Origin: Candidatus Fermentibacteraceae bacterium
GTDB taxonomy: Bacteria; Fermentibacterota; Fermentibacteria; Fermentibacterales; JCC-6
Assembly: GCA_041750285.1 (NCBI GenBank)
Contig: JBGSZS010000018.1
Location: forward strand, 64,048 to 128,047
DNA length: 64,000 nucleotides
Reading direction: 5' to 3'
Numbering within the stretch: position 1 is the first letter of the stretch; each line of letters begins with the position of its first letter. This document shows, piece by piece, positions 1,993 to 42,892 of this stretch. The position numbers and the translations under genes were made by a program. The notes beneath the pieces were generated by a model. It searched no databases. It saw only the letters and a program-made list of their open reading frames with translations, and was not told where the DNA came from.

Positions 1993-2629
1993 GCAAGATC
2001 ATCACGCCCGAGCTGGTGCCGATAATGGAGGCTCCCGCGGCCAGCATGGCGAGAACCGCCCCGGGTGTCCTGATGCCGCCCGATGCTTTCACATGAACTC
2101 CGGAGCCAACCGTTCTGCGAAGCAGCGCGACATCGGCCACGGTGGCGCCACCGGAACCGAAGCCGGTGGAGGTCTTCACGCAGAAGGCGCCGGCTTCCAC
2201 GGCCAGACCGCATGCAATGACCTTCTCTTCATCTGTGAGAAGGCAGGTTTCGAGTATGATCTTCACGGGCACCCCGGCCGACCCTGCGATCTGTCTCAGA
2301 AGCGAGGACACCTCCCGTACTGCTCCATCCTTCAGATGTCCCAGCGGGATCACGGCGTCGATCTCGCGTGCCCCGTGCGAAACCGCAAGTTCGACCTCAC
2401 GCGGGGTGGCCGGACCCGAACCGAGGGGGAACCCGGCGACCGAGCAGACCAGGGGGCCTTCCTTCCCGAGGATCGACGAAGCCAGAGCCACCCGGCACGG
2501 GTTAACGCAAACCGACCTGAACCCGTACTGAACTGCCTCGCGGCAATAACGCTCAACATCCCCGGATGTCGCATCGGGTCGAAGCAGCGTGTGGTCGATC
2601 CTGCCGGGAATGTCCCCCGGGTCGGTCAC
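1967..2629 (-). CDS. deoC: deoxyribose-phosphate aldolase
   Basis: IDHTLLRPDATSGDVERYCREAVQYGFRSVCVNP...VKASGGIR is a typical DeoC. The start is trimmed to the GTG at 2627-2629, which overlaps the upstream stop in a GTGA junction. The N-terminal extension of the long ORF is junk. Confidence 0.8.
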   Translation of the reverse strand: MTDPGDIPGRIDHTLLRPDATSGDVERYCREAVQYGFRSVCVNPCRVALASSILGKEGPLVCSVAGFPLGSGPATPREVELAVSHGAREIDAVIPLGHLKDGAVREVSSLLRQIAGSAGVPVKIILETCLLTDEEKVIACGLAVEAGAFCVKTSTGFGSGGATVADVALLRRTVGSGVHVKASGGIRTPGAVLAMLAAGASIIGTSSGVMILQKLRRPEG

Positions 2630-3930
2630 AGGCTCTGCCTGACGAAAACGAACACCGTTTCCCTCGCGGAGACACGAACAGGAGCATGGGAGGAAGCCCG
2701 TCCGTTGACCGTTATGCCAACGGGCCAGGTTCCTTCCGGAACCACGACCCTTGCAACATGGATCTGCGCCGGCATGGTAAGCCACGCCCTGAGGTCGGCC
2801 CTGTCGGTAACCGCACCCACGATGCTCAAAACAAGGCCCACTGCGTCACCAACCCTGGCGTCGCCGCTGGCCTCTTCGGCTATCCCCTCGCCAAGCTCGG
2901 AAACACCCGCCTTCACTGCGGTCCTTGCGGCCGCCCTTAGAACGTCGCGTCCCGCATGATCCTGAAGGTTCTGCCTGGCAAGCGCGTTCATGTCCTGCAC
3001 GAGGAAGAATGGTTCCCTGTTCCCGGCAACCTCGGCCGTGGCGGTCACTGAACGCCTTGGGCGTTCGGATATTGCCGGCAGTGAGATGTTGAACACGCGG
3101 TCGTCGGTGACCACGGAATAGCTTTCCTCGTGCCGTGTCGCGATGCTTCCCGCCTCGAGCACGAGAACGATCTCGCCCATGCCGGCGCCGGATGGCGTGT
3201 TCCCGGTGTCGAGGCCGGGCCACCGTTCAGTGTACTCGGAGAGCAGGCTTTCGTAGCCCGTGGCCCTGGCAAGGCGCAAAAGATCGACCTTGAGCCTGTC
3301 GGGCACGGGTACGCCGTAGTTCCGGGCGTAGTCGCCCTCGTAGATCTGAAGCGCCAGCCGGTAGCTCACCAGGGCATCGGAAAGCTCTCCGTCCGCTTCA
3401 TACAGCATCCCCATGAAGTAGCGGATGAAGGCATCGTCAATGTACCTGTTGGGGTTCTCGCCGTAGTCGGAGTTGAACACGCGAAGTTTCTGGTTGACCC
3501 TTCGAGCCTCGACCAGGGCGTTCTCGTAGTCTCCCGTGGAGGCGAAACTCGCTGCAAGGGCATAGTTGATGAACACCTTTTCGTAGTCGGCGCCCCTGAA
3601 CTCCCTGGCAAGGTCGCTGGTGAGCAGGGCTGCCGCCTCCTGATCGAAAGCTGTGCCCCTCTGGTTGTCGCTGATGCTCTCCGCCCTCAGAAGAGCAGCC
3701 CTGGCAACCTGTTGGGCTCCGGCGTATCGGGCCAGGTTGCCAAGCTCCATCAGATAGAGAAGCCTGTCCCGGCCCGTGGAGTCGGGGAAAACCTGTCTGA
3801 GGCGGACCATTGCCTGCTGGGGCTGGTACGAATCGAGCATTCCCACCACGGGACGGATCGTTCCGGTATACCCCGCAGCGCACGCCAGCCCCAGCAGAAC
3901 GGTGGAGAAAGCCAGAAGCCTTCTTACCAC
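2626..3930 (-). CDS. exported TPR-like protein of unknown function (434 aa), partner of the LpoB-like lipoprotein
   Basis: N-terminal signal peptide MVRRLLAFSTVLLGLACA-AG. The central region has TPR-like helical repeats (YENALVEARRVNQKL, LALQIYEGDYARNYG). It overlaps the upstream gene by 7 nt and deoC by 4 nt. Confidence 0.6.
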   Translation of the reverse strand: MVRRLLAFSTVLLGLACAAGYTGTIRPVVGMLDSYQPQQAMVRLRQVFPDSTGRDRLLYLMELGNLARYAGAQQVARAALLRAESISDNQRGTAFDQEAAALLTSDLAREFRGADYEKVFINYALAASFASTGDYENALVEARRVNQKLRVFNSDYGENPNRYIDDAFIRYFMGMLYEADGELSDALVSYRLALQIYEGDYARNYGVPVPDRLKVDLLRLARATGYESLLSEYTERWPGLDTGNTPSGAGMGEIVLVLEAGSIATRHEESYSVVTDDRVFNISLPAISERPRRSVTATAEVAGNREPFFLVQDMNALARQNLQDHAGRDVLRAAARTAVKAGVSELGEGIAEEASGDARVGDAVGLVLSIVGAVTDRADLRAWLTMPAQIHVARVVVPEGTWPVGITVNGRASSHAPVRVSARETVFVFVRQSL

Positions 3931-4538
3931 TCGATGATCTTCTTTATCTCGGTGGAACCCATCCAGACCTTGAGAGCGGTCTCGACGCTTACGAGTTCCA
4001 GGTTGACCTGATAGTAGACCGCACGGACATCGCCCTCCTGGTCTTCGACCGAATTCACGGTTCCAACCATGACAAAGTCGGCCCCGACTTCCCGGCCGAA
4101 CTGCGCAGCGGTTTCGGGGGAAGCGAAGATGGACTGGTCGCGGCGTTCCTGGCGGACCTCCTCACGTTCCCGGCCCCCGGCTGCGATCTGCACCCTGCCG
4201 CTGTTCAGAAGTGCCCTCTCGATGTCGCTCATGAAAACATCGGTGTTGATGTGCTCGAGGCTCTGATTGCGGACACCGCCGACAACGACAACCGGCTGGG
4301 CGGGCACTCCCCGCGCCTCCTCGCCCCTGTAGGTCACGTTGAGCCAGGTGCCGGCCATGCACTGGGCGACCATGGAGTCGGCGACGATGCGAGAGTCGGT
4401 GTCGTTCCAGCGGCCGCTGAGGTCTGTCTGGGTTCCGGGATCGGTGCGTGTCACGGTCCTGCCTCCGCACCCCGCCAAAAGAGCAACCAGAGCTGCCGCT
4501 ACAAGAAGCTTTTTCAAGGTTACACCCCTTTCATTCAT
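3924..4538 (-). CDS. LpoB/CsgG-like lipoprotein (COG3417-type)
   Basis: The internal start gives MNERGVTLKKLLVAAALVALLAGCGG with a perfect LAGC lipobox. PVVVVGGVRNQSLEHINTDVFMSDIERALLNSGRVQIA and ADFVMVGTVNSVEDQEGDVRAVYYQVNLELVSVETALKVWMGSTEIKKI match the LpoB/CsgG-family pattern. This is recalled from memory and was not searched. Confidence 0.55.
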   Translation of the reverse strand: MNERGVTLKKLLVAAALVALLAGCGGRTVTRTDPGTQTDLSGRWNDTDSRIVADSMVAQCMAGTWLNVTYRGEEARGVPAQPVVVVGGVRNQSLEHINTDVFMSDIERALLNSGRVQIAAGGREREEVRQERRDQSIFASPETAAQFGREVGADFVMVGTVNSVEDQEGDVRAVYYQVNLELVSVETALKVWMGSTEIKKIIEW

Positions 4539-5328
4539 GGCCCGGAAGGTCGATGGCCCCCCGGAAGATAACATTGAAGTAACCCGTGTCACGGCCTGTC
4601 CCCGTGACAATGGGAACAGGCAGTGGCTTGAAGATCATGATGCATGGATCACCGGCTTCGGGCATGGCGATGGAGGGGTCGCCACCAAGGGGCGTGTGGG
4701 TGAGCTCCCACATCACCCTTTCCTCTTCCGTGCTGTAGCCCGCGAACATCGCCTGCCTGCCGAGCGCTCCAAGTATGTCTCCAAGGCTTGTCTCGAGAAG
4801 GTTCGCGTAGAGCTGCATCTCGTTGAAGGCGTTGAAGGGCTGGATGAGGCCAAGTTGAGCGGCTGCATGTATCTCGGCAAGGGTGGGCAGTCGTGCGCCC
4901 CGGGATGAAAGGTACCACTGGGCGCCCGTCCAGGTGAAGGCGGCCGCGGGCCGGTCAAGGCAGACCGCCGGCACGGAGTACTCGGAAGTCGCAGTGGCCA
5001 CGAAGGGCGTAAACGCAAGGAAGTGGCCGCTGTCGCTGTACTGGCCCGTGATGACCGAGGCCAGCACCTGCCCGTCACGGCAGTTCTGCCCGAGCCAGGG
5101 AAGAACGTCGCGGTACGCCACCGGCAGCGAATCGATGAAGAAAGCGCCGACCTGCACGGTGTCACCCTGAACCACCACGCTCGATGCGGGCACGTATACC
5201 ATCCCGGGCGGCGGCAGGGGAAGTCCGCAAACGCTGCAGCTGTTTTCGGTCTGTTCGGCGCCGCATGCTGGACACGTCCAGGCGGCAGCGGAGAAGGCCA
5301 GAATCAGAAGGGCCCGGAGGGCGTTCAA
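4531..5328 (-). CDS. secreted FGE-sulfatase/DUF1566-like (C-type-lectin-fold) domain protein
   Basis: Signal peptide MNALRALLILAFSAAAW. The YLSSRGARLPTLAEIHAAAQLG motif resembles the RLPTxxE signature shared by the formylglycine-generating-enzyme and DUF1566 families. The C-terminus has an FRG motif. It overlaps yhhQ by 4 nt. Confidence 0.45.
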   Translation of the reverse strand: MNALRALLILAFSAAAWTCPACGAEQTENSCSVCGLPLPPPGMVYVPASSVVVQGDTVQVGAFFIDSLPVAYRDVLPWLGQNCRDGQVLASVITGQYSDSGHFLAFTPFVATATSEYSVPAVCLDRPAAAFTWTGAQWYLSSRGARLPTLAEIHAAAQLGLIQPFNAFNEMQLYANLLETSLGDILGALGRQAMFAGYSTEEERVMWELTHTPLGGDPSIAMPEAGDPCIMIFKPLPVPIVTGTGRDTGYFNVIFRGAIDLPGHE

Positions 5329-6020
5329 ACCTTTTCACCTCCCTTTGCGGCGATCCTTCTTCCCATGTAGATGAACGGAGTGTCGAAGGCTGCCACAATG
5401 AACTTGATCACGTAAGTGGAAACCAGAACGTCAATGAATACCCGTTTTTCAAGAACTCCCCAGAAGGCGATCCCGCAGAAGATCACCGTGTCGATGAGCT
5501 GGCTGACCATGGTGGACAGGTTGTTGCGAAGCCAGAGGTGCCTGCCCTTCGAAAGCCTCCTGATGTGGTTGTAGGCCCAGACATCGTGGAACTGGCTCAC
5601 AAGGTATGCGGCTATGCTCGCCAGGGCGAGACGAGGCATGAAACCGAAAAGAAGCTTCATTGCGCCGTTCACCTCCATGGCCCATGGGTCCTGCGCCGGC
5701 GAGAACAGAAGCGCCACCTGCATCACGACGGTCATCGCGATCATGCTCACAAAACCGGCGATGACGGCCCTGCGGGCCTCGGCGGGGCCGTAAACCTCGT
5801 TCAGTAGGTCAGTGGCGAAGAAGATGACCCCGTAGAGGATGTTGCCCAGGGTGACTGTGAAGCCGAACAGGGTCGTGAGTTTCATGACCTCGAGGTTGCA
5901 CAGGATGACGGCCGACGCCACCAGGGCGATAAGCCCGGTTTTCCCGCCGGACCGGAATACCAGCAGAGTGGCCGAAAGCATGGCGAAAAGGCTGATGAAC
6001 CAGAGTACTTCGTTGCCCAT
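5325..6020 (-). CDS. yhhQ: queuosine precursor transporter (YhhQ/DUF165 family)
   Basis: Polytopic membrane protein. LGNILYGVIFFATDLLNEVYG matches the conserved YhhQ motif. Confidence 0.75.
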   Translation of the reverse strand: MGNEVLWFISLFAMLSATLLVFRSGGKTGLIALVASAVILCNLEVMKLTTLFGFTVTLGNILYGVIFFATDLLNEVYGPAEARRAVIAGFVSMIAMTVVMQVALLFSPAQDPWAMEVNGAMKLLFGFMPRLALASIAAYLVSQFHDVWAYNHIRRLSKGRHLWLRNNLSTMVSQLIDTVIFCGIAFWGVLEKRVFIDVLVSTYVIKFIVAAFDTPFIYMGRRIAAKGGEKV

Positions 6021-8860
6021 CAGAACTCGGCACCGAGAGTCACATAGTGTTCGGGCTTCTCGCTCACACCGTTGAGGTCGGTTCTCCAGGCGCAGTCCCA
6101 GAGGAAGACGAACAGGCCGAGGTTGAACCTGAGGCCAAAACCGAACCCCATCTTCAGGTCGTTGAGCCTGAACCCGCCGTCGGTCCTCACTGCCCTGAAG
6201 GCGCCCACATCATCGGTGGCCCCGCCTATGTCCGTGAAGATAACCCCCCTGCCTCCGGTCACCGTCAGCGGTATCGGGGCGGCAAGGCTCAACTGGTCGA
6301 CAAAGGGGTATCGGAGCTCGAGGGAGCCCAAAGCGTACCTTGTTCCGTTGTACTCCACGTAGTCGAAGCCCCGCAGCAGGTCTGAGTAGCTCGTGTAGAA
6401 CCCGAAAAGGTCCTCCACACCCTGAACGTCGCCGACGCTCCTGCGGTGTGGGATGGCTCCGCCGAGGAAGAACCTTTGAGGGTCCTCGCCAAAGCTGGCA
6501 CCGGCCGCCAGCCTGGTGGCAATGGTGACCTGGCCCGAAACCCAGGTGTAGTTCCTGATGTCGCCCTGGATGGTTGTGTAACCGGCGTTTTCCCAGAAGC
6601 CGGGGGCCCAGTCCGCCGAGAGGGACATCCTGCTTCCAACCCTGGGTCCCGTTGCCCCCCAGAGAGCGTTGTCGAGAACAAGCCTTCCGCTGAAGGCGAG
6701 TATGTTCTCGCGGAGGTTGATGTCGGTGGACCAGAGCCCCTCCCTGTCCAGCCTTCGGTACCCCACCCCAAGCGAGGCCCTGAGGGAACGGGTGAAGGGG
6801 TAACGCAGTTCCAGCCCCGTTCCTATCTCGGTGTCCCTCACGTAGTCGTTCTCTTCGCTCTGGGTGTCGGTGAACCGGTACCGTGTGGCAAGACGGTACA
6901 GCGACACGCCGTACTGAACCCTGCCCTCCATGTTGGAGTAGAAGCACCCCGCGTCGACATCGCTGACTTCACCGTTGAGATCGGCAAGGATCGCAAGCTG
7001 GTGCCTTGCGAGAATGTCGCTGAAAATGAACTGCGAGTACCCCGCAAGCCCGGCGTAGCTGTCAAAACCGGCTGTGGCACTCACGTAGTCGAGGCTCAGG
7101 CCAGGATCGTAGGGTGAGATCCGCCACGTGCCCGGGGTTGCCAGCGTTGTCTCGACGATGCCGGAGTCGGGGGGCGCGGGAACGGGAGGTGATTCGGGTT
7201 CGCTTCCGGCCCTCTGTGAAAGGTTGCGGGTCAGGAATATCCCGCCTCCGCTCCAGTCCGATGAGTAGAACATTGAAAGCCCGGTGTCGGATGCCCTGGA
7301 AAGGGCGGAGGGGGTTCTGTAGAGGTTGCTTATCCGGGTTACCTCCCCGGTTTCAGCGGACAGGAGGTGGAAATTGGCTCCGCTGCCGGTGTTCATTATG
7401 AACACAACACCCTCGGGGTACGAGACCGGGTTCCGCAGGGAGAAAGGTGTCTCGTAGAGAAGACGGGGGGATTCGCCGGGGAACACTGCGTTCAGTGTGT
7501 AGATCCTGCCGTTCTCCCTTTCTCCCACATAAAGGATGCCCTGGTCGCCCCACCAGAGGTCGCGGGGACTGTCGCCGCCGTCCGTTATCCTTTCGACGGC
7601 TCCGGTTGCGGTGTTCCACAGGTAGATGTCCAGAACCCCTTCACTCATCGCGCTGAAGGCAACACGGCCCCCGTCCGGGGACCATGCCGGGTCGCGGACA
7701 AGCTGAAACTCTACGGGAAGGGCAAGCTCGCCGCCCCCTATGCCCCTTATCAGAAGGCCGTCGGCGTACTGGCCCTGAACCGCGACGGCCACTGAATCCG
7801 ACCCCGGGGAGAAGGCGCCTGTGCGGAACATGGGTGAAGGGCTGGTCTCGTTAAGACCTGCACCGCTGACGGGTCTGAGTATCTCCCTTCCGTCGGCCGT
7901 GCTTCTGACAACCGAAGAGAACCTTCCCCTGTGAAACTCCACGCCCGATGTCATGGCCCCGTCGGGGGAGATCACCGGCTCTGCGAGGACCACTCTCCTG
8001 CGGCCCCTGCTTCCGTCACGGATTATGGGGGTTCCGATGTCGGAGGGGCTCTCTCCTTCGGAAACGGGAGCCCAGTAGGTTTCGCGGGCCCATTCGATGA
8101 ACCGTTCGCTGAACTGCTCGACCGACATGTCGAAGGCGGCCCTGACGGCCCCCTGAAGGCCGTCGTTGTCCCTCAGGTGTCTTACGAAATCGATGTAACG
8201 GTCTTCGCCGTACCTGTCAACCATGAACTTGTAGATGGCCTGACCCTGCCGGTAGACAAGGTAGTCGCTTCGCACGGAGAGCTGCTGGATGGGGACGATC
8301 TGGTTCGCTATGACCATGTCGCGGAACTCGGACTCGCTGTCGATGTCCCACCCCTGAGACGTGTATTCCGCAAGCCCCTCGAGGGTCCAGAGAGGGGCCT
8401 TGCTCCGGACTATCCCATACAGGCTGCGGTCGTAAAGCATGTCGTACACGAAGGCGTGGTTGATCTCGTGTTCCAGCACATGGCGGTACTCGCTGTACAC
8501 ACCAGCGTAGGGAACGACGACCCTGCCCTTGAAGAACTCGGTGAAACCGCCGACCCCCTCGCCGATCTCGCCGCTGATGACCGAGGTCTGGCGGAACCTT
8601 CCCGGCGACCTGTAAACGATGACAGGGATGGGCTCGGAGGGCAGGTACTCGAAAGTCGATGAAAGGGCCTGCATTGACCTTTCGCCGATGACGACGGTGC
8701 TCTCCGCGACCTGCTCGGTTCCCTCTTCGTAGTAGACGGTGAACCTGCTTGAATGAAGCTCCCACCAGGGGTTGTCGTGTGTGAAGACCCTGTTCCTGCC
8801 GTAACCGGTCGCAAGGGCCGTGGAAGCCAGAAGCAAAGGAAGAACGCATCTTGCAGCCAT
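6020..8860 (-). CDS. large outer-membrane protein with an N-terminal HExxH (gluzincin-like) domain, TolB-like beta-propeller repeats and a C-terminal Omp85/BamA-family (Bac_surface_Ag) beta-barrel ending in Phe
   Basis: Signal peptide MAARCVLPLLLASTALA. Zinc-binding motif VLEHEINHAF, with EGLAEY downstream. TolB-like repeat PDGGRVAFSA...DIYLW. C-terminal Omp85 motifs QRFFLGG...LRGFDY, SLELRYPF, GRGVIFTDIGG and GFGFGLRF, and the protein ends in ...LGAEF. No POTRA domains are evident. Confidence 0.7.
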   Translation of the reverse strand: MAARCVLPLLLASTALATGYGRNRVFTHDNPWWELHSSRFTVYYEEGTEQVAESTVVIGERSMQALSSTFEYLPSEPIPVIVYRSPGRFRQTSVISGEIGEGVGGFTEFFKGRVVVPYAGVYSEYRHVLEHEINHAFVYDMLYDRSLYGIVRSKAPLWTLEGLAEYTSQGWDIDSESEFRDMVIANQIVPIQQLSVRSDYLVYRQGQAIYKFMVDRYGEDRYIDFVRHLRDNDGLQGAVRAAFDMSVEQFSERFIEWARETYWAPVSEGESPSDIGTPIIRDGSRGRRRVVLAEPVISPDGAMTSGVEFHRGRFSSVVRSTADGREILRPVSGAGLNETSPSPMFRTGAFSPGSDSVAVAVQGQYADGLLIRGIGGGELALPVEFQLVRDPAWSPDGGRVAFSAMSEGVLDIYLWNTATGAVERITDGGDSPRDLWWGDQGILYVGERENGRIYTLNAVFPGESPRLLYETPFSLRNPVSYPEGVVFIMNTGSGANFHLLSAETGEVTRISNLYRTPSALSRASDTGLSMFYSSDWSGGGIFLTRNLSQRAGSEPESPPVPAPPDSGIVETTLATPGTWRISPYDPGLSLDYVSATAGFDSYAGLAGYSQFIFSDILARHQLAILADLNGEVSDVDAGCFYSNMEGRVQYGVSLYRLATRYRFTDTQSEENDYVRDTEIGTGLELRYPFTRSLRASLGVGYRRLDREGLWSTDINLRENILAFSGRLVLDNALWGATGPRVGSRMSLSADWAPGFWENAGYTTIQGDIRNYTWVSGQVTIATRLAAGASFGEDPQRFFLGGAIPHRRSVGDVQGVEDLFGFYTSYSDLLRGFDYVEYNGTRYALGSLELRYPFVDQLSLAAPIPLTVTGGRGVIFTDIGGATDDVGAFRAVRTDGGFRLNDLKMGFGFGLRFNLGLFVFLWDCAWRTDLNGVSEKPEHYVTLGAEF

Positions 8861-8912
8861 TCGGCCCCCCTATATTGTGATTGCCGCAACAAACAACTAT
8901 AGTGCCAGTGGA

Positions 8913-9257
8913 ATGAAAGCCGCAACAATCACCGTCTGGACGACTCTCACCCTGCTTCTATCCGCTTCGGGATGCGGGGGTTCCCCCCGTTCGAACGCGG
9001 AGCTTTCCCGGACTGAACGGGTGCTTCTCGAGGAAACCGGAGGCATTCTTGCCAGGAACCTGGCGTTCCCGCCGGGAAGCGCCAACTGGCGGGAAGCCCC
9101 TTCGGAATCTGTCGCAACGGCAGTCACGGGAATCGCTGACCGGGTCCCCTCGGCCTGGACGGTTCTCTTCCGCTCGGCGTCCGACACCCTTGCAAGGCTC
9201 GAATCGCCCTATCAGGGCATTGGCTACGGTGACACCCCGGGGCAGGGTTCAAGGTGA
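8913..9257 (+). CDS. small hypothetical lipoprotein
   Basis: The internal ATG at 8913 gives MKAATITVWTTLTLLLSASGCGG, a signal peptide with an SASGC lipobox. It lies between two divergent minus-strand units. Confidence 0.35.
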   Translation: MKAATITVWTTLTLLLSASGCGGSPRSNAELSRTERVLLEETGGILARNLAFPPGSANWREAPSESVATAVTGIADRVPSAWTVLFRSASDTLARLESPYQGIGYGDTPGQGSR

Positions 9258-9302: not shown

Positions 9303-10550
9303 TCAGACGCGGGTGACGACACGGGCGACGTCGCGCCAGATGACTGCGGCGAAAAGGAGAAGGAGCATGAAGAAGCCGATCTGCTGGGCGAGCTGGATGT
9401 GCTTCTTCGATGCCGGGCGGCGTCTGATGCCTTCGTAGAGAAGGATGAGGAACTGGCCGCCGTCGAGGATGGGTACGGGCAGAAGGTTGAACCCCATGAT
9501 GGCGAGCGAGAGGTAGGAAACAGTTTCAAGAAGGCGGGCAAGGCCGAATGAAGCCTGCTGACCCAGGGTTTCCGCAACGAAGACTGGTCCGCCCGACATC
9601 TCGACGAGCTGAACGGGTTTGAGGATCATGGCCGCGATCCCTGTGAAGAACGCTCCCGCTCCCTCGATGGAGGCGGCCACGCTGACAAGAAAGGCCCTGC
9701 CGATGGAAAGCCTCACGACGCGAGTTCTGGTGAGGGGGGTCACACCGATCAGCTTCCTTCCCTGGTAGTCCAGTGGTTCGACGAAGATCGTGTCGGTAAC
9801 GCCGTCGCGAACGAAGACCAGTTCGAGGAACCTCCCCTGAAAACCGGCCACGGCGCTCTGAAGGTCGCTGAAAGCAGCGAGTGGAATGCCGTCGGCCGTT
9901 ACAACGCTGTCTCCCGTGCGAAGGCCGGCCTCGTAGGCCGGAAGCCCTACCGAAGCCTCTCCGATGACGGTCGAAAGCAGGGGGGTGAAGCCGGGAGCCG
10001 AGTCGGGATCGAGTGAATAGGGAACCTCAAGGGCTCCGACGGCTGCCCTGCGGATCGTGAACACGCCCTCGGGTATCCGCTGGGTCTTCTGGAAGACCTG
10101 GTCCCAGCTCTGGACAGCCTCGCCGTTCACGGCCGTCACCAGATCGCCCCTGGAAAGCCCGGGCACACCGAACGGGTCGTCCACCACAGGTTCGGAATCG
10201 GGTACTCCCGTTCCAATGACGCCAAGGACCGCGAAGATCAGCAGGAAGGCAAGGCACAGGTTCATTGCCGGCCCGGCAAGGACCACGAGGGCGCGTTTCC
10301 ACCATGGCGGTCTGATGCCGTCGGTGTCGTTGCCGGAGGTTCCCAGGTCGACCTTGACGAAGCCGCCCAGGGGGATGGCCCCTATGCAGTATTCGGTCCC
10401 GCCCCGCCTGACCCGGACGAGCAGCGGGGGAAACCCCATTGAAAACCTTTCAACTGGAAGCCCGACCGCCTTCGCCATGAGAAAATGGCCAAGCTCGTGG
10501 AAGAAAACGATTATTCCCAGCCCGAACACGACGGCAAGAGCGCTGCTCAC
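9303..10550 (-). CDS. rseP: RIP metalloprotease RseP (site-2 protease) with PDZ domain
   Basis: FHELGHFLMAKAVG HExxH motif, a PDZ region and a C-terminal LDGG motif. Confidence 0.85.
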   Translation of the reverse strand: MSSALAVVFGLGIIVFFHELGHFLMAKAVGLPVERFSMGFPPLLVRVRRGGTEYCIGAIPLGGFVKVDLGTSGNDTDGIRPPWWKRALVVLAGPAMNLCLAFLLIFAVLGVIGTGVPDSEPVVDDPFGVPGLSRGDLVTAVNGEAVQSWDQVFQKTQRIPEGVFTIRRAAVGALEVPYSLDPDSAPGFTPLLSTVIGEASVGLPAYEAGLRTGDSVVTADGIPLAAFSDLQSAVAGFQGRFLELVFVRDGVTDTIFVEPLDYQGRKLIGVTPLTRTRVVRLSIGRAFLVSVAASIEGAGAFFTGIAAMILKPVQLVEMSGGPVFVAETLGQQASFGLARLLETVSYLSLAIMGFNLLPVPILDGGQFLILLYEGIRRRPASKKHIQLAQQIGFFMLLLLFAAVIWRDVARVVTRV

Positions 10551-11659
10551 ATCTCCTCCATGACATCCCGCGCCAGTTGCCTGGCATGGGAATCGGCCTT
10601 TTCCAGAACGTCAAATCCTGTGACAGGAACGGCGTCGAACCTTGAAAGGACCCCTGAGATCACTTCGGATACGGCACCGAAGGGGATCCGCCTCGAGAGG
10701 AAAGCCCTCACCGCCTCCTCGTCAGCGGCGTTGGCTGCCGCCGGGGCCGTTCCACCGGTATCATAAGCAGCCAGGACGGCGGCGTACGCAGGGTATCTCC
10801 CGGGGTCAACCGGACGGAAATGAAGGGCGCCCCACCCGAGGGGGTGGTCACCGCAACGGGTTTCGGGAATGTCGAGCGCAGGCCAGTGGAGGGCGTAGGA
10901 AATGGGAAGGCCCATGTCCGGAGTGCCCATCAGTGCCTTCCATGCGCCGTCGGCGGTCTCGACCAGGGAGTGGACGATGCTTTCGGGATGAACCACCACC
11001 TCGACGGGAATGCCCGGGAAAAGGCGCCTTGCTTCGATAACCTCGAAAGCCTTGTTCACCATTGACGCCGAGTCGACGGTTATCCTTGAGCCCATGCTCC
11101 AGTTCGGGTGGGAGAGGACACGCTCGACCGAAGCCGTGGCCAACTCGCACGCCGGCATGTCGCGAAGGGCGCCTCCGCTTGCAGTAAGAACGATGCGTGC
11201 GGGTGGTCTGTGCTCGCCGGCGAGACAGCGGAAGATCGTGCTGTGCTCGCTGTCGACCGGTATGACCAGCCCCTTCCCGAGGTGCTGAAGCAGAAGGTCC
11301 CCGCCCACAACCAGGCTCTCCTTGTTGGCCAGGGCCAGGGGGATTCCCGCTTCCTGCGCGAGAAGGCTTGCCTCGAGCCCCGCGCTGCCCACTATGGCGT
11401 TGAGAACCATGTCGGCACCCCCGATCAGCCCTGCAAGGTGTTCCCTGCCCACGAGAAGGCCTGTTCCATCAGCCCCTGCGGGGAGTGTGGCAATGCCCGC
11501 CAGGGCGGGATCGTACCGCTCCACCTGCTCCCTGAGGATGGAAAGCGATGAACCGCAGTAAACCGAGTGGAGAACCAGCGAGGGGCTTTTTTCGATCACT
11601 GCAAGGGCCTGCACTCCAATGGAGCCCGTGGAACCCAGCACCGCGACCCGCCTCTTCAC
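10547..11659 (-). CDS. dxr: 1-deoxy-D-xylulose 5-phosphate reductoisomerase
   Basis: RVAVLGSTGSIG NADPH-binding motif, plus LANKESLV and SHPNWSMG. The start is trimmed to about V31, next to the cdsA stop. Confidence 0.85.
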   Translation of the reverse strand: MKRRVAVLGSTGSIGVQALAVIEKSPSLVLHSVYCGSSLSILREQVERYDPALAGIATLPAGADGTGLLVGREHLAGLIGGADMVLNAIVGSAGLEASLLAQEAGIPLALANKESLVVGGDLLLQHLGKGLVIPVDSEHSTIFRCLAGEHRPPARIVLTASGGALRDMPACELATASVERVLSHPNWSMGSRITVDSASMVNKAFEVIEARRLFPGIPVEVVVHPESIVHSLVETADGAWKALMGTPDMGLPISYALHWPALDIPETRCGDHPLGWGALHFRPVDPGRYPAYAAVLAAYDTGGTAPAAANAADEEAVRAFLSRRIPFGAVSEVISGVLSRFDAVPVTGFDVLEKADSHARQLARDVMEEM

Positions 11660-11663
11660 TCTC

Positions 11664-12464
11664 TCACCCCATCCCCAGAAGCCCGTAGAGCACCAGGGCG
11701 ACCGGGGCAGCGGCAACGACGCTGTCGAACCTGTCGAGGATGCCGCCATGATCGGCCAGGAACCGGCCCGAATCCTTTATGCCCGCATCACGCTTCACCG
11801 CGCTCTCGAAGAAGTCGCCGATCACTCCGGCCACTCCGCACAACAGACCCACGAGAAGAAGATGTGCAAGGGGTGCGGTACCGCGGCCCAGAACTGCCAC
11901 CGATGCCATTGAACCCGCAATGCCCGCTGTGAAACCCTCCCAGGATTTCGCCGGGCTGACGAGTGGCAGCATCTTGTGCCTTCCCCAGCGGCACCCCGCG
12001 AAGTAGGCGAAGCTGTCGCCCACCCAGCAGGAAACCAGCGGGATCAGAACCGGCGCGCGGTCGGTCCACCCCAGAGACAGTCTGGCAAGGACTCCAAACC
12101 CCAGTGTGTAGTATGCCGTCAGGGCCATCACGCCAAGCATCCCCGCGCGGGCGCCCTCGGGAGTCCGCCGCGAGATCCACCACATGGCGTGAACGGCGCC
12201 CGGAAGCATGAGGGCCTGCATGGCGTACTGCGACCCGACGCCTGTCAGCAGTGTGGACAGGGCGGCGGCTGACCCCACCATGAACCGGAGGGGAATGGGT
12301 GTGGAAACCACGCAGAGAGTCACTGCCTCGTAAGCCGCAAGACCTGCGAGAAGGGCGAAAAGCGCAAGGGAGGCAGTGGGGCCGCCCCAGAGAATGACGG
12401 CCAGAAAGGCGGCGAGTCCTGGAACGGCCACGAGTATCCGCCCCCTGAGGCCGGGAAACGGCAT
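11664..12464 (-). CDS. cdsA: phosphatidate cytidylyltransferase
   Basis: Multi-TM protein with a C-terminal GGILDRFDS motif. Confidence 0.8.
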   Translation of the reverse strand: MPFPGLRGRILVAVPGLAAFLAVILWGGPTASLALFALLAGLAAYEAVTLCVVSTPIPLRFMVGSAAALSTLLTGVGSQYAMQALMLPGAVHAMWWISRRTPEGARAGMLGVMALTAYYTLGFGVLARLSLGWTDRAPVLIPLVSCWVGDSFAYFAGCRWGRHKMLPLVSPAKSWEGFTAGIAGSMASVAVLGRGTAPLAHLLLVGLLCGVAGVIGDFFESAVKRDAGIKDSGRFLADHGGILDRFDSVVAAAPVALVLYGLLGMG

Positions 12465-14451: not shown

Positions 14452-15047
<596 letters not shown>

Positions 15048-15051
<4 letters not shown>

Positions 15052-15848
15052 TCCTTCTCTTCGATGACCGGTTCGACCGTCTCGACCGCCTCTTCGGCAG
15101 CCTGTTGCCTGTCTTCGCCCTCAACGGAGGTCATGGCCGGTTTCTCGTCAACTTCCCTCGGGTTCCTGCCCTCGGCGCCAAGCAGGGCCGAGTCTGCCAG
15201 CGTTCCGATGATCATGGATATGGACTTGATGGCGTCGTCGTTTCCGGGGATCGGGTAGTCGACCTCGCCGGGATCGCAGTTCGTGTCGACCACTCCGATG
15301 CACGGGATGCCAAGTCTTTTGGCTTCCTGTACGGCGATGGCCTCCTTCTTGATGTCCACCACTATCACAACTCCGGGAAGACCCTTCATGTGACGTATGC
15401 CCCTGAGATACTTCTCGATCCTCTCGCGCTCACGGGTCTTCTGAAGGATCTCGCGCTTCTTGAGACCCCTGGGAAAACCTTCATGCTCCTCCTTCTCGAG
15501 TTCGTTGAGACGAAGGATGCTGCGGTACACGGTCTTGAAGTTGGTGAGCGTGCCGCCCAGCCAGCGCTCGGTCATGAAGTACTGCCCGCAACGTTCGGCG
15601 TGACCCTCGACACACTCGCGGCCCTGCTTCTTGGTGGCCACGAAGAGAACGTCCTTCCCCTGGGCCACGGTTCTGGAAACCAGGTTCACCGCGTCTTCGA
15701 GAGCCTTCTGGGTCTTTTTGAGGTCGATGATATGTATGCCGTTACGGGACATGAAGATGTAGTTCTTCATGGCGGGGTTCCAGCGTTTGTCCTGGTGGCC
15801 GAAGTGAACCCCTGCTTCCAGCATCTGCTGAATCGATGGAATCTGCAT
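15048..15848 (-). CDS. rpsB: 30S ribosomal protein S2
   Basis: [24 protein letters not shown], with an acidic C-terminal tail. Confidence 0.9.
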
Positions 15849-15967
15849 TTTGAGTCTGTCCTTTCGGTTTCACCACCGGTGGAAGCGGGCGCCAATCCTT
15901 CGAGGGACACCGGGCGCCCGCAAAAACCCACCGTGAGTAATCAAGGCTCCGTGCGGAGCGGTAAACA

Positions 15968-16360
15968 CTACCTCTTGGAGAACTGGAAACGCTTGCGCGC
16001 CTTCGGTCTTCCGTACTTTTTGCGCTCGACGATCCTGGGGTCGCGCCTGAGCATTCCCTGAGTTTTAAGGGTCTGCCTGTACTCGGGGTTGGCATCGACC
16101 AGAGCCCTGGCGATGCCCATCCTGATGGCGCCGGCCTGTCCGGTTATGCCACCGCCCCTGACATTCACGACCACGTCGAAAATGCCCATGACCCTTACGG
16201 CATGAAGGGGCTCGAGGGCGTGGTCCTTCTGGGAAAGGTCGCCGAAATACTCGAGCGGTGTCCTGTCATTGATGACGACCCGGCCCGAGCCCGGCCTGAG
16301 GTAGCACCTTGCGGTGCTGGTCTTTCTTCTTCCAACGCCTATATGCTGGTCCATTCTCAC
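15968..16360 (-). CDS. rpsI: 30S ribosomal protein S9
   Basis: [17 protein letters not shown] ... [16 protein letters not shown]. Confidence 0.9.
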
Positions 16361-16369
16361 CTTTCCCGG

Positions 16370-16798
16370 CTAGAACTCGAGCACCTGGGGCTGCTGAGCC
16401 TCGTGGGGGTGTTCGACGCCCGAATAGATTTTGAGTTTCTTGATCTGGGCCCTGCCAAGCCTGTTCTTGGGCATCATGCCCGCAACGGCGTGACGAAGGA
16501 CCCTGTCGGGATGATTCGCCAGGAGATCCCGCATGAGAACCGACTTCTGGCCGCCCGGATAGCCGGTGTGCCTGTAGTAGTGTTTCTGTTCGAGCTTGTT
16601 GCCCGATACGTGAAGCTTGTCCGCGTTCACGACCACGACAAAGTCGCCGGTGTCGATGTGCGGTGTGTAGACCGGCTTGTTCTTGCCCTGGAGAAGCATG
16701 GCAAGCTTGGTGGAAAGCCGGCCGAGGGTGAGGCCGTCGGCGTTCACCAGCCACCAGTTGCGCTGTATCTCCCCGGCCCTGGCCGAATAGGTCTTCAA
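16370..16798 (-). CDS. rplM: 50S ribosomal protein L13
   Basis: KTYSARAGEIQRNWWLVNADG with a TTG start at 16796-16798 and a GGAGG RBS 7 nt upstream. The long-ORF extension is spurious. Confidence 0.85.
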   Translation of the reverse strand: MKTYSARAGEIQRNWWLVNADGLTLGRLSTKLAMLLQGKNKPVYTPHIDTGDFVVVVNADKLHVSGNKLEQKHYYRHTGYPGGQKSVLMRDLLANHPDRVLRHAVAGMMPKNRLGRAQIKKLKIYSGVEHPHEAQQPQVLEF

Positions 16799-16907
16799 GG
16801 TTCTACCTCCGAAAAGGGCTGTTTCTCTATGGTAACAACTAATGCAAAACAACAACATGCCCTCACCCGTAGTGGGCTTGCACAGTTCAGGTGAAGGGAC
16901 GGCTAAT

Positions 16908-17339
16908 CTATTCCGACCCGCCGGGAAAGTCAAGTTCACAAAGGGCTTGGGGAAGCGTTTCGGGGGTGCACGCCGTTCCCCCGCCCAGAACGATGAGCTC
17001 CCACGGCACCGGTTCGACCCTTGCGCAAACCACCAGAAGCCTTGCGCCCAGGACCGCCGCGGCCACCCCCTTGCCTGCCAGGGCCAATCCCCGCAGCCGG
17101 TGGGGCACCCGTGTTGAAAAACCCTGGGGCATCACGAACACGCCTGCCCTTGCGAAGGGAACGAACAGCTGAACACCTGGCCATGGTTCGAGACGGCAGG
17201 GTCTGCTGAAGCCAAGTGGCCTGAGCACTTCCCAGGTCGCGCCATAGATGCGCCTGCGCCTGTTGCCGGCCAGTTCGGCTCCGGGATGGCTTTTACCGGG
17301 TGTGATCACGGGAAGGGGCACGTTCAGGGCATCGTGCAT
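16908..17339 (-). CDS. hypothetical protein of uncertain authenticity, downstream of recX
   Basis: Only ORF in the 530-bp gap between recX and rplM. I recognised no family, and the start is a guess. Confidence 0.2.
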   Translation of the reverse strand: MHDALNVPLPVITPGKSHPGAELAGNRRRRIYGATWEVLRPLGFSRPCRLEPWPGVQLFVPFARAGVFVMPQGFSTRVPHRLRGLALAGKGVAAAVLGARLLVVCARVEPVPWELIVLGGGTACTPETLPQALCELDFPGGSE

Positions 17340-17431
17340 GCACCTGGGAACCCCGGGGGGCGGGGGCGGAATTGGCGCTTCAGTAAGCCTGCACCCCATG
17401 GCGGTGTAGAACCATCGTGTGTGCGGGTTTT

Positions 17432-18031
17432 TCACAGCGCCTTCTCCAGAACGGCGGCGATGACCGCCGCCGGAAAACCCCTTCGCATGAGCCATCCAGC
17501 GGCGCGCCTTCTTGCCGTTTCACGGTCGGATATTCCGCCGTACTTCCTTTTCACGAGCGCTGCAAGGGAAACCGTGGAATCGCCGTCAGGCGTTTCGGAG
17601 AGAACAGCGGTTATGGCGCTTTCCCCGACGCCCTTTCCGCGAAGACGTGCCTTCAGCCCCGCCCTTCCCAGCGTGTGGCTGGCGGCGAATGCCCTGGCGA
17701 AGCGGAGGTCGTCTATCAGGCCGTACTCGTGCGCCCACGCTATGCAGTCCGCGACAACCGCGGAGAGGTAGCCCCTGTCACGAAGTTTGGCGGCGAGTTG
17801 GCCGCTGCTGCGTTCGGACAGTGCCAGGTACCGGTTCGTGTACCTTTTCGCATCGGAAAGCTGTGCCCCCCCGGCCTCGCTGCGCAGGGCTTCAGGGTCG
17901 ATGAACGCGCCGGGAACGACCCCGTTCGCATCGGCGGTTTCGCTGGGAATGAGAAGGGACTCTTCCTCGAGCCTCGCCACCACCCAGCCACGGCGGGCAG
18001 GGGTCACGGAAAGGACCTCGGACAGGTTCAT
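17432..18031 (-). CDS. recX: recombination regulator RecX
   Basis: 4-nt overlap with the recA stop. Three helical repeats ([22 protein letters not shown]...). Confidence 0.75.
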
Positions 18032-24369: not shown

Positions 24370-25809
24370 TCAGGGAATCACAAGGAGCCGGTAACAGGAG
24401 CTGTTCCTCACGGATGGGATCCCGGGGATGGAATCACCCAAAAAGCCCCCTGGCAATGCCTGGTTTTCCCTGTTCCCGTTTATGAACACGGGGAAGTTGC
24501 GGATCCACTGAGCCCCGCCCGCGACGCTGCTCGTGGTTTCCACGACCACGCCAATGCCCGAGGCCTGAGCCGCCGGAAGGCTCCTCAGCCAGGCAGCCGC
24601 ATCGGCAACCCCGGCCTCTCTGACCGTTACGATCGTGGAGAGGGGGATGACCGAAAGCCCGGGGTTCCTGGCCCTCAGGACCTCGGCCAGAAACACAGCG
24701 GCGGTGTCGCCCGCGAGGGGATAGATGCCGGGTGCGAAATTCTCCCACTGCAGGTCGGGGGAGCGGTTGACCGCCAGGGCGAAAGTGTCTGGGGAAAATG
24801 CCGTCGAGTCACCGCCGGCCAGAACGGCGCCAAGGGGAAGGTCTGCTGAGATGTCGGGCGCAGTGTTCGTGGAGTCGGCAACCATGTCCCTGATGCGGGC
24901 GTAACTCCAGAAGCGTGAAGAGGATGAATCCTGCTGCAACGGCATCACGACCTCGGACGGGGGATCGGGGGTTGAGAACAGGTTGTCCTCCCCTCCTTCC
25001 GGAGCCTTGCGCGAATCGAACACCCCCGCGGCGAGCAGGACCCCAAGTACAACCATTATGGAAACCGCCACGAAGGGAAGGACAGGAATGCGCGCTCCGC
25101 CACCGGAATGGCAGCTCGCTGCTGCCACCGCTCCGCCCTGCCTTCTGTAGGCAACCCGGCTCTCCCTGATGAGAGTGGCCAGCCAGCCCTCCATGTTCTT
25201 CCCGGTGCCCCTCTTGAGCGCGCCTTCCCGAAGGTGCATCCATACGCCGGGTGTCGCGGCCAGCACCACTGCACCCGGATTGATACGGGTGTGACCCGTG
25301 ACGATGTGGTTCCCCTCACCGCCCAGCCAGTGTGAAAGGTCACGTATGCGGCGGGAGTATTCGGGGTGGTCCCTCCCCAAGCCGGACGATTCGGCTTCGG
25401 AGCAATCTGTGGCCAGGATGGAGACGGTGTCTTCATCGAATTTGAGTATCCGGCAGGCGCCGGTCGAGGCGAACCATGCGTGGGTGCCGCAGAACGCAAC
25501 TGCGGCCACGCTGCAGCCTCCGTGACCGTTCCTGCGGATGATGTCGGCCGCTTCCCGGAGAGCATCTCCCAGGGCTTCCTCGATGCCGTAGGCAACTCCC
25601 TCGGCGAAGACGTCGCGAACCGTGTTTACTGCGATCTCGGCGGAGGGGTCGTCATCGGGGTTGAGCCCCTCGGCGACAACGACAACGCCCGCGTAGGGGA
25701 ATTCGCCCAGATAGCCGTCGGAACACACCCTGCGCTGAAGCCTGCTGCGTCCCGGTTGAGACTTCCATGCTCCCACGCAACCTGGTTGTGCTGACTTGCC
25801 TCCGCTCAT
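24370..25809 (-). CDS. PP2C-like (PPM-fold) domain protein with a single TM helix and a large C-terminal extracytoplasmic domain; possibly a pseudo-phosphatase
   Basis: N-terminal region colinear with PP2C motifs (VVVVAEGLNPDDD, AAVAFCGTHAWFASTGACRI, VVLAATPGVW). TM segment IPVLPFVAVSIMVVLGVLLAAGVF. A roughly 230-aa Ser/Ala-rich C-terminal domain. Confidence 0.55.
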   Translation of the reverse strand: MSGGKSAQPGCVGAWKSQPGRSRLQRRVCSDGYLGEFPYAGVVVVAEGLNPDDDPSAEIAVNTVRDVFAEGVAYGIEEALGDALREAADIIRRNGHGGCSVAAVAFCGTHAWFASTGACRILKFDEDTVSILATDCSEAESSGLGRDHPEYSRRIRDLSHWLGGEGNHIVTGHTRINPGAVVLAATPGVWMHLREGALKRGTGKNMEGWLATLIRESRVAYRRQGGAVAAASCHSGGGARIPVLPFVAVSIMVVLGVLLAAGVFDSRKAPEGGEDNLFSTPDPPSEVVMPLQQDSSSSRFWSYARIRDMVADSTNTAPDISADLPLGAVLAGGDSTAFSPDTFALAVNRSPDLQWENFAPGIYPLAGDTAAVFLAEVLRARNPGLSVIPLSTIVTVREAGVADAAAWLRSLPAAQASGIGVVVETTSSVAGGAQWIRNFPVFINGNRENQALPGGFLGDSIPGIPSVRNSSCYRLLVIP

Positions 25810-32968: not shown

Positions 32969-32987
32969 GGGGTGCGGGGCTGCCCCG

Positions 32988-33551
32988 TCAGATCTCGGAC
33001 TCGTCGAACCACTGCCAGATGTACCATTCGCCGTCTTCATCGGGCCTGCAGATGAACTGGGCGCTTCCCGAAGCCCTGTATCCCGTCACGCCGCCGGAAC
33101 CGCCGATGCTGGTGTAGACCTTGAGGTCGAACGTTCGGGGAAGACAGTAGCTTATGCCGGAAGGGTCACCCATCCAGGGGTACTCCTGGGTGCCCGTGAA
33201 GGTGAGCTCTATGAGCTCGACACCGTTGAACATGGCCTGGTGGAACTCGTCTTCCTTGTCGAGCCCCCAGTAAGTGTCGATTATGCCGTCGCCGTTGTAG
33301 TCATCCCAGTCCTGCTCGAGGAGGTGGAACTCGAAGTCGTCGCGGAAGCACTGCATGTAATGGTCGTGGTCGCGGTTGACGTAGGCCATCTGAAGGTTTG
33401 CGAGAACCTTCCAGGCGCTGTCGGCCGGGCTGTAGAAAAGGGGCGGTTCGGTTGGGTCGGGGTCGGCATCGGGGCTGAAAAGACAGCCCGTGAGCGCGAG
33501 AAAAGCTGATATCGTTATCAGCAGGGGTTTTACCGATGCTCCTGTCTTCAC
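32988..33551 (-). CDS. hypothetical lipoprotein
   Basis: MKTGASVKPLLITISAFLALTGC lipobox. The body is acidic and Trp/Tyr-rich. Confidence 0.5.
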   Translation of the reverse strand: MKTGASVKPLLITISAFLALTGCLFSPDADPDPTEPPLFYSPADSAWKVLANLQMAYVNRDHDHYMQCFRDDFEFHLLEQDWDDYNGDGIIDTYWGLDKEDEFHQAMFNGVELIELTFTGTQEYPWMGDPSGISYCLPRTFDLKVYTSIGGSGGVTGYRASGSAQFICRPDEDGEWYIWQWFDESEI

Positions 33552-41662: not shown

Positions 41663-41665
41663 TGG

Positions 41666-42826: not shown

Positions 42827-42892
42827 GTCCTTATCCTCCGATTTCGGCGTTCGCACCGGCACGGGCCGACCAGGCCGGCGCGTGACGGGCCG

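Follow-up and report, generated by a model that had tools for sequence, protein, structure and literature searches.

A predicted zinc peptidase, a propeller and an Omp85 barrel in one protein of a Candidatus Fermentibacteraceae bacterium, a member of the WD40-like Omp85 subfamily

Introduction

Omp85 proteins are central to the building of the outer membrane. Canonical BamA of Proteobacteria carries five POTRA domains, and to our knowledge all characterised BamA members have at least one; in E. coli, bamA follows rseP. Here we describe a gene located downstream of rseP in a 64,000-nucleotide stretch of DNA from a Candidatus Fermentibacteraceae bacterium (assembly GCA_041750285.1, contig JBGSZS010000018.1, positions 64,048 to 128,047), which we call the window. 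Its 946-amino-acid (aa) product, referred to below as the target, joins an N-terminal zinc peptidase and a beta-propeller to a C-terminal Omp85 beta-barrel. Judged by domain content and residue conservation, the target is almost certainly a member of the WD40-like Omp85 subfamily and an active protease. We put at about even the chances that it is an outer-membrane-anchored periplasmic metalloprotease engaged in quality control or turnover of envelope proteins.

The Omp85/TpsB superfamily has been divided into ten subfamilies, one of them named 'WD40-like' (Heinz & Lithgow 2014, Front Microbiol 5:370; PMC4104836). Members of this subfamily combine PF07676 repeats with PF01103, have no POTRA (Table S2 of that study) and were likened to a fusion of BamA and BamB (PMC4104836). 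The best fold matches listed for them in Table S3 were the BamA/TamA barrel, the TolB propeller and, at the N-terminus, aminopeptidases or collagenases (1z5h, 4kxd, 3qnf, 4ar1 and 4fgm), and the best match of one member, D0MCT8, was the tricorn protease 1k32 (PMC4104836). More recently, 'divergent WD40 and peptidase domains' were ascribed to the subfamily (PMC11358297, 2024), and it was counted with the metalloprotease and patatin-like subfamilies among those that 'have not been well characterized' (PMC11116518, 2024). The precedent for an Omp85 scaffold reused beyond assembly is PlpD, whose enzyme domain was shown experimentally to be exclusively periplasmic (PMC11116518). Among envelope proteases, BepA is known to degrade or rescue stalled outer-membrane proteins (OMPs) at BAM, the machinery by which beta-barrels are assembled (PMC8423444, PMC13478230).

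Domain architecture

From its N-terminus, the target consists of a signal peptide, a gluzincin peptidase domain, a six-bladed TolB/PD40 propeller, a disordered linker of ~35 aa and a 16-stranded Omp85 barrel (Table 1). The domains were located by a Pfam scan judged against curated cut-offs, in which POTRA was sought down to E <= 1, and by an AlphaFold2 model built on an alignment of 84 sequences; the model is a prediction, not a solved structure. For the full-length protein it reached a predicted local distance difference test score (pLDDT) of 83.1 and a predicted template modelling score (pTM) of 0.80. Cleavage by signal peptidase I is probable after ALA, as read from the sequence, and the mature N-terminus G21-x-N23 is kept in 76-78 of 78 homologues. 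The exact protein was also found in public assemblies, on a contig of 370 kb, and a protein of the same cluster bears the name 'BamA/TamA family outer membrane protein [Candidatus Fermentibacteraceae bacterium]'.

A first-pass annotation of the window had described a POTRA-free fusion of an Omp85 barrel, an HExxH gluzincin and a TolB-like propeller, citing the motifs HVLEHEINHAF, LEGLAEY, QRFFLGG, LRGFDY, ELRYPF, GVIFTDIGG and GFGLRF and a terminal Phe. All of these are present in the translation, and the domain assignment is borne out by Pfam, AlphaFold2 and Foldseek. The residues of the HExxH site are intact. Both the absence of POTRA and the C-terminal match to Omp85 held when tested with Pfam and the model: no POTRA was matched in the target at E <= 1, none is seen in the AlphaFold2 secondary structure, and the families listed for 48 diverse members do not include it. 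Hidden POTRA domains were rejected on these three results. The linker, with only ~35 residues, is too short to hold a POTRA, so the N-terminal region does not conceal the five repeats of an ordinary BamA.

The zinc-peptidase domain

Peptidase_MA_2 (PF13485) matches aa 74-257 of the target with 38.7 bits against a cut-off of 32.4, and aa 30-275 form a mixed alpha/beta domain in the full-length model. Modelled alone, the N-terminal domain had a pLDDT of 81. Its Foldseek matches were M9 collagenases, in their peptidase domains (4ar9, E 7.5e-5; 7wss, TMq 0.61), and M1 aminopeptidases, in their catalytic domains (IRAP, ERAP1, PepN, LTA4H and tricorn F3). These fold matches identify the domain as a gluzincin. 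A sequence-profile search of the domain against the PDB gave nothing significant, and the relationship is visible through the fold search alone. HExxH with a downstream Glu and a match to a thermolysin-like fold, both features of clan MA(E) gluzincins, are present. The M1 motif 'LNEGFA' is taken here as the counterpart of EGLAE in the target; by this analogy and by the M1/M9 fold match, E161 would be the third zinc ligand.

Conservation was followed in three sets of homologues: 84 sequences at 29-94% identity, 80 sequences at 24-56% identity, drawn from species-representative genomes that span at least 15 phyla, and 48 cluster representatives at 24-31% identity. Residues H131, E132, H135, E161, E165, Y203, Y217, R830 and G831 are invariant in the first set. 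All 80 sequences of the second keep H131, E132, H135, E161, E165, Y203, E108, K111 and R113, and the same nine are invariant in the third (48/48) except K111, which is kept in at least 90%. Such conservation, which takes in both the catalytic site and loop 6 of the barrel, argues for a zinc peptidase that works and for an Omp85 barrel under functional constraint, and against a decayed fusion. A pseudo-enzyme was rejected on the same grounds, the catalytic residues being invariant across homologues.

Propeller, linker and barrel

PD40 matches the target at aa 390-413 (24.6 bits, cut-off 20.9). In a sequence search of the PDB with the target, TolB propellers alone were matched (E 7e-13 over aa 340-541), and Foldseek likewise returned TolB (4r40, 2hqs and 1crz) at a TMt of ~0.5. 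The model places ~25 beta-strands in aa 280-545, consistent with six blades. The likeness to TolB is one of the six-bladed PD40 propeller; the target is without the N-terminal domain of TolB, only the propeller aligns, and the TolB equivalog TIGR02800 reaches 33.3 bits where its cut-off is 343. The PD40 repeats of the target are degenerate, with one Pfam repeat against three or more in other members. The propeller resembles DPPIV_N in 39 of the 48 family members, and Tricorn_N was likewise seen. PD40 propellers gate access to the peptidase in DPP-IV, prolyl oligopeptidase and tricorn or bind partners, as in TolB-Pal. Between propeller and barrel, the alignment columns of the linker are variable and gap-rich in both the 84- and the 48-sequence sets.

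Omp85 (PF01103) matches aa 660-926 with 37.9 bits (cut-off 24), and 16 long strands lie between aa 589 and 944 of the AlphaFold2 model. Foldseek searches of the PDB matched the barrel with probability 1.00 to BamA, including the F. johnsoniae (9n2d_A, E 3e-10) and E. coli proteins, and to TamA. A profile of the barrel alone matched chains of BamA (E 8e-10 to 4e-7) better than TamA (0.006-0.05), and with this preference the earlier suggestion of a 'divergent BamA paralogue' is a fair one at the superfamily level. The target thus has PF01103, the predicted 16-strand fold and the lid-lock of loop 6 and FxDxG, all of them marks of the Omp85 superfamily, and a C-terminal aromatic residue is found in 75 of 78 homologues. 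With BamA it shares the 16-stranded barrel, the loop-6 RG(F/Y), FxDxG, the C-terminal aromatic residue and a position after rseP as in E. coli. Unlike BamA, it has an enzyme and a propeller N-terminally and no POTRA, and it falls short of the NCBIfam BamA models TIGR03303 (10.6 bits vs 297.15) and NF058613 (~10.6-10.7 bits vs 1050).

Family membership and distribution

The propeller before the barrel, the absence of POTRA and the aminopeptidase/collagenase-like N-terminus are the defining features of the WD40-like Omp85 subfamily. The target has all of them, and we assign it there with high confidence. Its three-part architecture and its folds are those of Table S3. It differs in coming from Fermentibacteria, which are absent from the 2014 data set, in being only 24-31% identical to most representatives, and in its degenerate PD40 repeats and post-rseP position. 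The first-pass annotation had offered a 'new class of barrel-tethered periplasmic protease' as one option. A barrel-tethered periplasmic protease is indeed our best reading, but the class is not new, having been catalogued in 2014 with the same folds (PMC4104836). Neither patatin nor POTRA was matched in the target or stands among the families listed for the 48 members, which sets the target apart from type Vd/PlpD.

A word-indexed search returned 1273 relatives of the target, and phmmer, run exhaustively over 1.84 billion cluster representatives, gave 706 at E <= 1e-30, that is, at least 700 clusters at 50% identity; a chance open reading frame (ORF) is ruled out by these numbers. Among the best 150 of the 706, nearly all are 900-1190 aa long. 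At least 327 loci were found in a genome scan. Carriers include Fermentibacteria (Sabulitectum, Aegiribacteria), Ignavibacteria, Zixibacteria, Stahlbacteria, WOR-3, KSB1, Bacteroidota, Fibrobacterota, Calditrichota, Kapaibacteria, Neomarinimicrobiota, Fidelibacterota, Eisenbacteria and Gemmatimonadetes. The family spans at least 15 phyla, mostly of the Fibrobacteres-Chlorobi-Bacteroidetes (FCB) group, with a few outside. Its composition is regular: among the 48 diverse members, PD40 was detected in 47, Peptidase_MA_2 in 45 and Omp85 in 36 (E <= 0.01).

Some genomes carry more than one copy. Two Eisenbacteria loci have a second full-length paralogue of the same peptidase-propeller-Omp85 architecture a few kb upstream of the main match (L056:679-3567 and L060:2210-5752), and a third type of copy follows rseP in L061 and L062, so this lineage is multi-copy. 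Accessions with the prefix D0M presumably come from Rhodothermus marinus, the species tag being shown for D0MK95 only; if all of them do, the WD40-like family appears to coexist with canonical BamA in Rhodothermus. The published tables place D0MKD0 in the BamA(6) column, list four D0M-prefix accessions as WD40-like and give D0MK95_RHOM4 as BamA-like (PMC4104836).

Every ORF of 70 aa or more from the window and from 80 loci was searched with a barrel hidden Markov model, and the Pfam-annotated contig was inspected as well. Neither search turned up a further Omp85 or a canonical BamA in the 64-kb window or at up to 10 kb in the Fermentibacteria loci. The only extra Omp85 genes among the 80 loci were the tandem same-family paralogues in two Eisenbacteria loci. 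Our literature search found no paper on BamA in Fermentibacter.

Gene neighbourhoods

The minus strand of the window reads tsf, pyrH, frr, uppS, cdsA, dxr, rseP and, after a gap of 442 bp, the target (Table 1). The position after dxr-rseP, which had been noted before, is confirmed by this Pfam-annotated gene order. The small opposite-strand lipoprotein-type gene said to separate rseP from the target also proved real: it is a plus-strand ORF with a signal peptide and a Cys, and L001, L003 and L005, three of the four loci from Fermentibacteria, have a homologue at the same spot (E 1e-8 to 1e-15). It matched no Pfam or NCBIfam family, and a sigma-70-like site precedes it on the plus strand at 8875-8903. 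With this divergent gene separating it from rseP, the target has an upstream region of its own, 52 bp long.

The listed dxr ORF begins ~30 codons before the conserved N-terminal sequence VAVLGSTGSIG, and 86 bp of it coincide with the end of cdsA. The public gene call for the dxr sequence (L081) is 370 aa long, and the true start is probably internal to the listed ORF.

Table 1. Features of the target gene and its neighbours (window coordinates)
Feature	Position	Strand	Evidence or remark
Target gene, 946-aa WD40-like (peptidase-propeller) Omp85 protein	6020..8860	-	ATG start; stop codon 6020-6022; ORF list and translation
Signal peptide, aa 1-19, MAARCVLPLLLASTALATG	8804..8860	-	Read from sequence; pLDDT <50 for aa 1-18
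Gluzincin (clan MA) zinc-peptidase domain, aa 20-275	8036..8803	-	Pfam PF13485, separate domain model, Foldseek
HExxH zinc-binding/catalytic motif, H131 E132 I N H135	8456..8470	-	Invariant in 84/84, 80/80 and 48/48 sequences
EGLAE, E161...E165	8366..8380	-	E161, G162 and E165 invariant in three alignments
Six-bladed TolB/PD40-type beta-propeller, aa 280-545	7226..8023	-	PDB sequence matches, model, Foldseek
Pro/Ser/Glu-rich disordered linker, aa 546-579	7124..7225	-	pLDDT 45-67, no regular secondary structure
16-stranded BamA-type Omp85 beta-barrel, aa 580-946, Phe at end	6023..7123	-	Pfam, model, Foldseek, barrel profile
Loop-6 lid motif LRGF, aa 829-832, Omp85 '(V/I)RG(F/Y)'	6365..6376	-	R830 in 75/78 and G831 in 78/78 homologues
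Barrel-wall motif FTDIG, aa 875-879, Omp85 'FxDxG', pairs with loop 6	6224..6238	-	F875 in 75/78, D877 in 78/78, G879 in 76/78
tsf	14452-15051	-	Start of tsf-to-rseP cluster
dxr	10547-11749	-	Listed ORF
rseP, M50 site-2 protease with PDZ, upstream neighbour	9303..10550	-	Pfam Peptidase_M50 E 5e-53 and PDZ
Small divergent gene, 114 aa, putative lipoprotein (MKAATITVWTTLTLLLSASGC...)	8913..9257	+	ATG at 8913; signal peptide ends LLLSASGC; 52 bp from target start
Vut_1/YhhQ	5325-6020	-	Start overlaps target stop as TGATG
FGE-sulfatase-like secreted protein, weak match	4531-5328	-	Pfam/NCBIfam
LpoB-like lipoprotein	3924-4610	-	TIGR02722 99.6 bits, just below cut-off of 110.6
TPR protein, lipobox-like N-terminus	2626-3930	-	Pfam/NCBIfam

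The four genes downstream of the target (2626-6020) share its strand, and their ends overlap or abut. FGE-sulfatase-like, LpoB-like and TPR genes lie downstream in L001, L002 and L003, three of the four loci from Fermentibacteria; the LpoB-like gene was undetected in L005, and yhhQ adjoins the target in just one other locus (L002). The order from tsf through rseP to the target is kept in all four Fermentibacteria loci (L001, L002, L003 and L005) and in two Eisenbacteria loci (L061 and L062). These are six of ~79 loci, with no phylum beyond the two, and post-rseP synteny was rejected as a family trait. Being lineage-specific, the position is weak evidence for a BamA-like role.

Other associations were found in other phyla. 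A BamB-like PQQ-propeller lipoprotein gene (PQQ_2 at 2e-48; TIGR03300 174 bits) lies directly downstream of the target homologue, on the same strand, in 11 loci: L074 (2663-3814), L040, L049, L050, L052, L053, L054, L058, L069, L072 and L080. It is followed in nine loci by a gene for a PEGA-domain membrane protein, and the three may form a conserved module. The homologues with this BamB-like neighbour belong to a shorter subclade of ~910-930 aa from Ignavibacteria, Bacteroidota and Calditrichota. Further recurrent neighbours are an LpxH-like phosphoesterase gene upstream (8 loci), a heptosyltransferase/GmhB fusion gene (7 loci) and a MurA-like gene (5 loci, read by eye from the cluster representative). 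The recurrent neighbours are envelope-biogenesis genes, none of them universal.

Possible function and alternatives

Both ends of an Omp85 barrel lie in the periplasm. Since this should hold for the barrel of the target too, since the linker is short, disordered and variable, and since PlpD, the one enzyme-Omp85 fusion known to have been tested, has its enzyme in the periplasm, the peptidase and propeller are most likely placed there as well. The variation of the linker in length and sequence is unlike that of a pore-traversing segment. The barrel would then act chiefly as an outer-membrane anchor or docking scaffold, with the peptidase and propeller hanging beneath it on a flexible linker. 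The propeller would probably bind or filter polypeptide substrates and select or present them, in the manner of the propellers of DPP-IV, prolyl oligopeptidase and tricorn or of TolB with Pal. The enzyme would cleave envelope polypeptides, the likeliest substrates being misassembled or stalled OMPs or lipoproteins.

Envelope neighbours, the occasional BamB-like partner, the lid-lock motifs and the precedent of BepA together suggest OMP or lipoprotein quality control or turnover. The target might then correspond in function to BepA, as a fused analogue that acts at BAM, and would be an accessory factor and not the OMP insertase of the cell. We propose this specific quality-control role tentatively and regard it as possible but doubtful. 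BepA shares with the target an HExxH zinc protease of the cell envelope and a protein-interaction domain. Unlike the target, it belongs to M48 and is not M1/M9-like, is soluble in the periplasm, carries TPRs in place of a propeller and has no barrel, so the likeness is conceptual and not one of homology. With PlpD, the target shares the combination of an Omp85 barrel and an N-terminal hydrolase (PMC11116518). PlpD differs in being a homodimeric patatin lipase with one POTRA, whereas the target has a zinc peptidase and a propeller and no POTRA.

The size of the family, its absolutely conserved zinc site and its envelope-gene neighbourhoods make it, as far as sequence can tell, a credible candidate for an outer-membrane-resident protease. 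It is possibly what corresponds to OMP quality control of the BepA/DegP type in phyla with a BAM unlike that of E. coli. The machinery in those phyla is already known to differ from that of E. coli (PMC12611786), and the F. johnsoniae BAM paper makes no mention of the WD40-like subfamily. The target adds a member from the under-sampled phylum Fermentibacteria to a subfamily known only bioinformatically, and the addition specific to this instance is its lineage-restricted position after rseP.

Several points weigh against a periplasmic quality-control protease. The periplasmic topology is argued by analogy alone, and our literature search found no experimental work on any WD40-like member. PQQ-propeller lipoproteins are common, and the BamB-like neighbour scores below the BamB equivalog cut-off (174 vs 285 bits). 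The neighbourhoods on which the quality-control role leans, together with the BepA analogy, are heterogeneous, with no single partner in more than ~14% of loci. The several paralogues per genome (four apparent in Rhodothermus and the tandem copies in Eisenbacteria) fit diversified substrates, such as nutrient peptides, equally well.

Many of the carrier lineages are degraders of peptides or proteins, which counts for a nutritional use of the same parts. In a periplasmic oligopeptidase of this kind, comparable to DPP-IV or tricorn, the propeller would filter incoming peptides, the M1/M9-like domain would trim them before uptake and the barrel would be a mere anchor. The closest relatives of the N-terminal domain, M1 aminopeptidases and M9 collagenases, would suit such a role, as would the propellers resembling DPPIV_N in most members and Tricorn_N, the multiplicity of paralogues and the tricorn match of D0MCT8 (PMC4104836). 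In addition, the family has a conserved strand, GGFTE, that precedes HExxH by 23 residues, a position that may be like that of the M1 exopeptidase motif GAMEN. We nevertheless consider a nutritional role unlikely, because the neighbours serve envelope biosynthesis and housekeeping, the loci showed no genes for peptide transporters, for SusC/D-type systems or for other nutrient acquisition, and a barrel serving only as an anchor leaves the strict conservation of the loop-6 and barrel-wall motifs unexplained. Another possibility is a self-translocating surface protease resembling type V systems, in which the barrel would export the peptidase and propeller to degrade external proteins. The order of N-terminal enzyme and C-terminal barrel is that of autotransporters and of the original PlpD model, secreted collagenases are among the closest folds, and the option was raised for Omp85-enzyme fusions by Heinz & Lithgow (PMC4104836). 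The PlpD precedent has since been overturned in favour of a periplasmic passenger (PMC11116518). The target also has neither a POTRA nor a conserved helical or pore-spanning segment, only its disordered and variable linker of ~35 aa; its propeller is closest to periplasmic TolB, and its gene context is one of envelope housekeeping. Together these make surface display clearly improbable.

The barrel itself brings up an OMP insertase or core BAM subunit, that is, a BamA whose POTRA arm has been swapped for a BamB/TolB-like propeller and a protease, perhaps resident at the bamA locus of Fermentibacteria. Consistent with this, the BamA-type barrel has loop 6 and FxDxG intact and ends in Phe, the slot after rseP is occupied in Fermentibacteria and Eisenbacteria, no other Omp85 was found in the window or within 10 kb of any Fermentibacteria locus, and 11 loci have a BamB-like gene downstream. 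An insertase, however, would be one without POTRA that scores ~10.6-10.7 bits with BamA models whose cut-offs are 297 (TIGR03303) and 1050 (NF058613), and an invariant protease site is unnecessary for insertion. The position after rseP is patchy (6 of ~79 loci), and even in the window a divergent gene intervenes and leaves the target its own promoter region. Several paralogues per genome and the apparent coexistence with canonical BamA in Rhodothermus also speak against an insertase, and we judge it very improbable. Less probable again is the narrower proposal that in Fermentibacteria and Eisenbacteria the target sits in the bamA slot as part of, or replacement for, the OMP-assembly machine. 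If that were true, barrel (BamA), propeller (BamB/TolB-like) and protease (BepA-like) would be united in one protein that couples insertion to proofreading, and these lineages would lack a canonical POTRA-bearing BamA or have demoted it.

Other genes in the window

Further genes for envelope or secreted proteolysis were observed in the window. An S8 subtilase that ends in weakly matching CarboxypepD_reg/FlgD_ig-like domains is encoded at 31106-33040 (-), near a TPR-PEGA-TonB_C protein at 33717-34988 (+), and a Peptidase_M90 gene lies at 35529-36488.

ORFs of 318, 230, 195 and 479 aa, located at 15105-17495 and 24370-25809, matched no Pfam family at E <= 1e-4; those of 318, 230 and 195 aa are conserved beside the tsf cluster in other Fermentibacteria loci.

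An EtfA-type electron-transfer flavoprotein subunit of 503 aa, which carries a 2x[4Fe-4S] ferredoxin domain as an N-terminal fusion, adjoins an acyl-CoA dehydrogenase at 39684-42862 (-). Pairings of EtfA and acyl-CoA dehydrogenase of this kind are seen in the electron-bifurcating butyryl-CoA dehydrogenase systems of fermenters.

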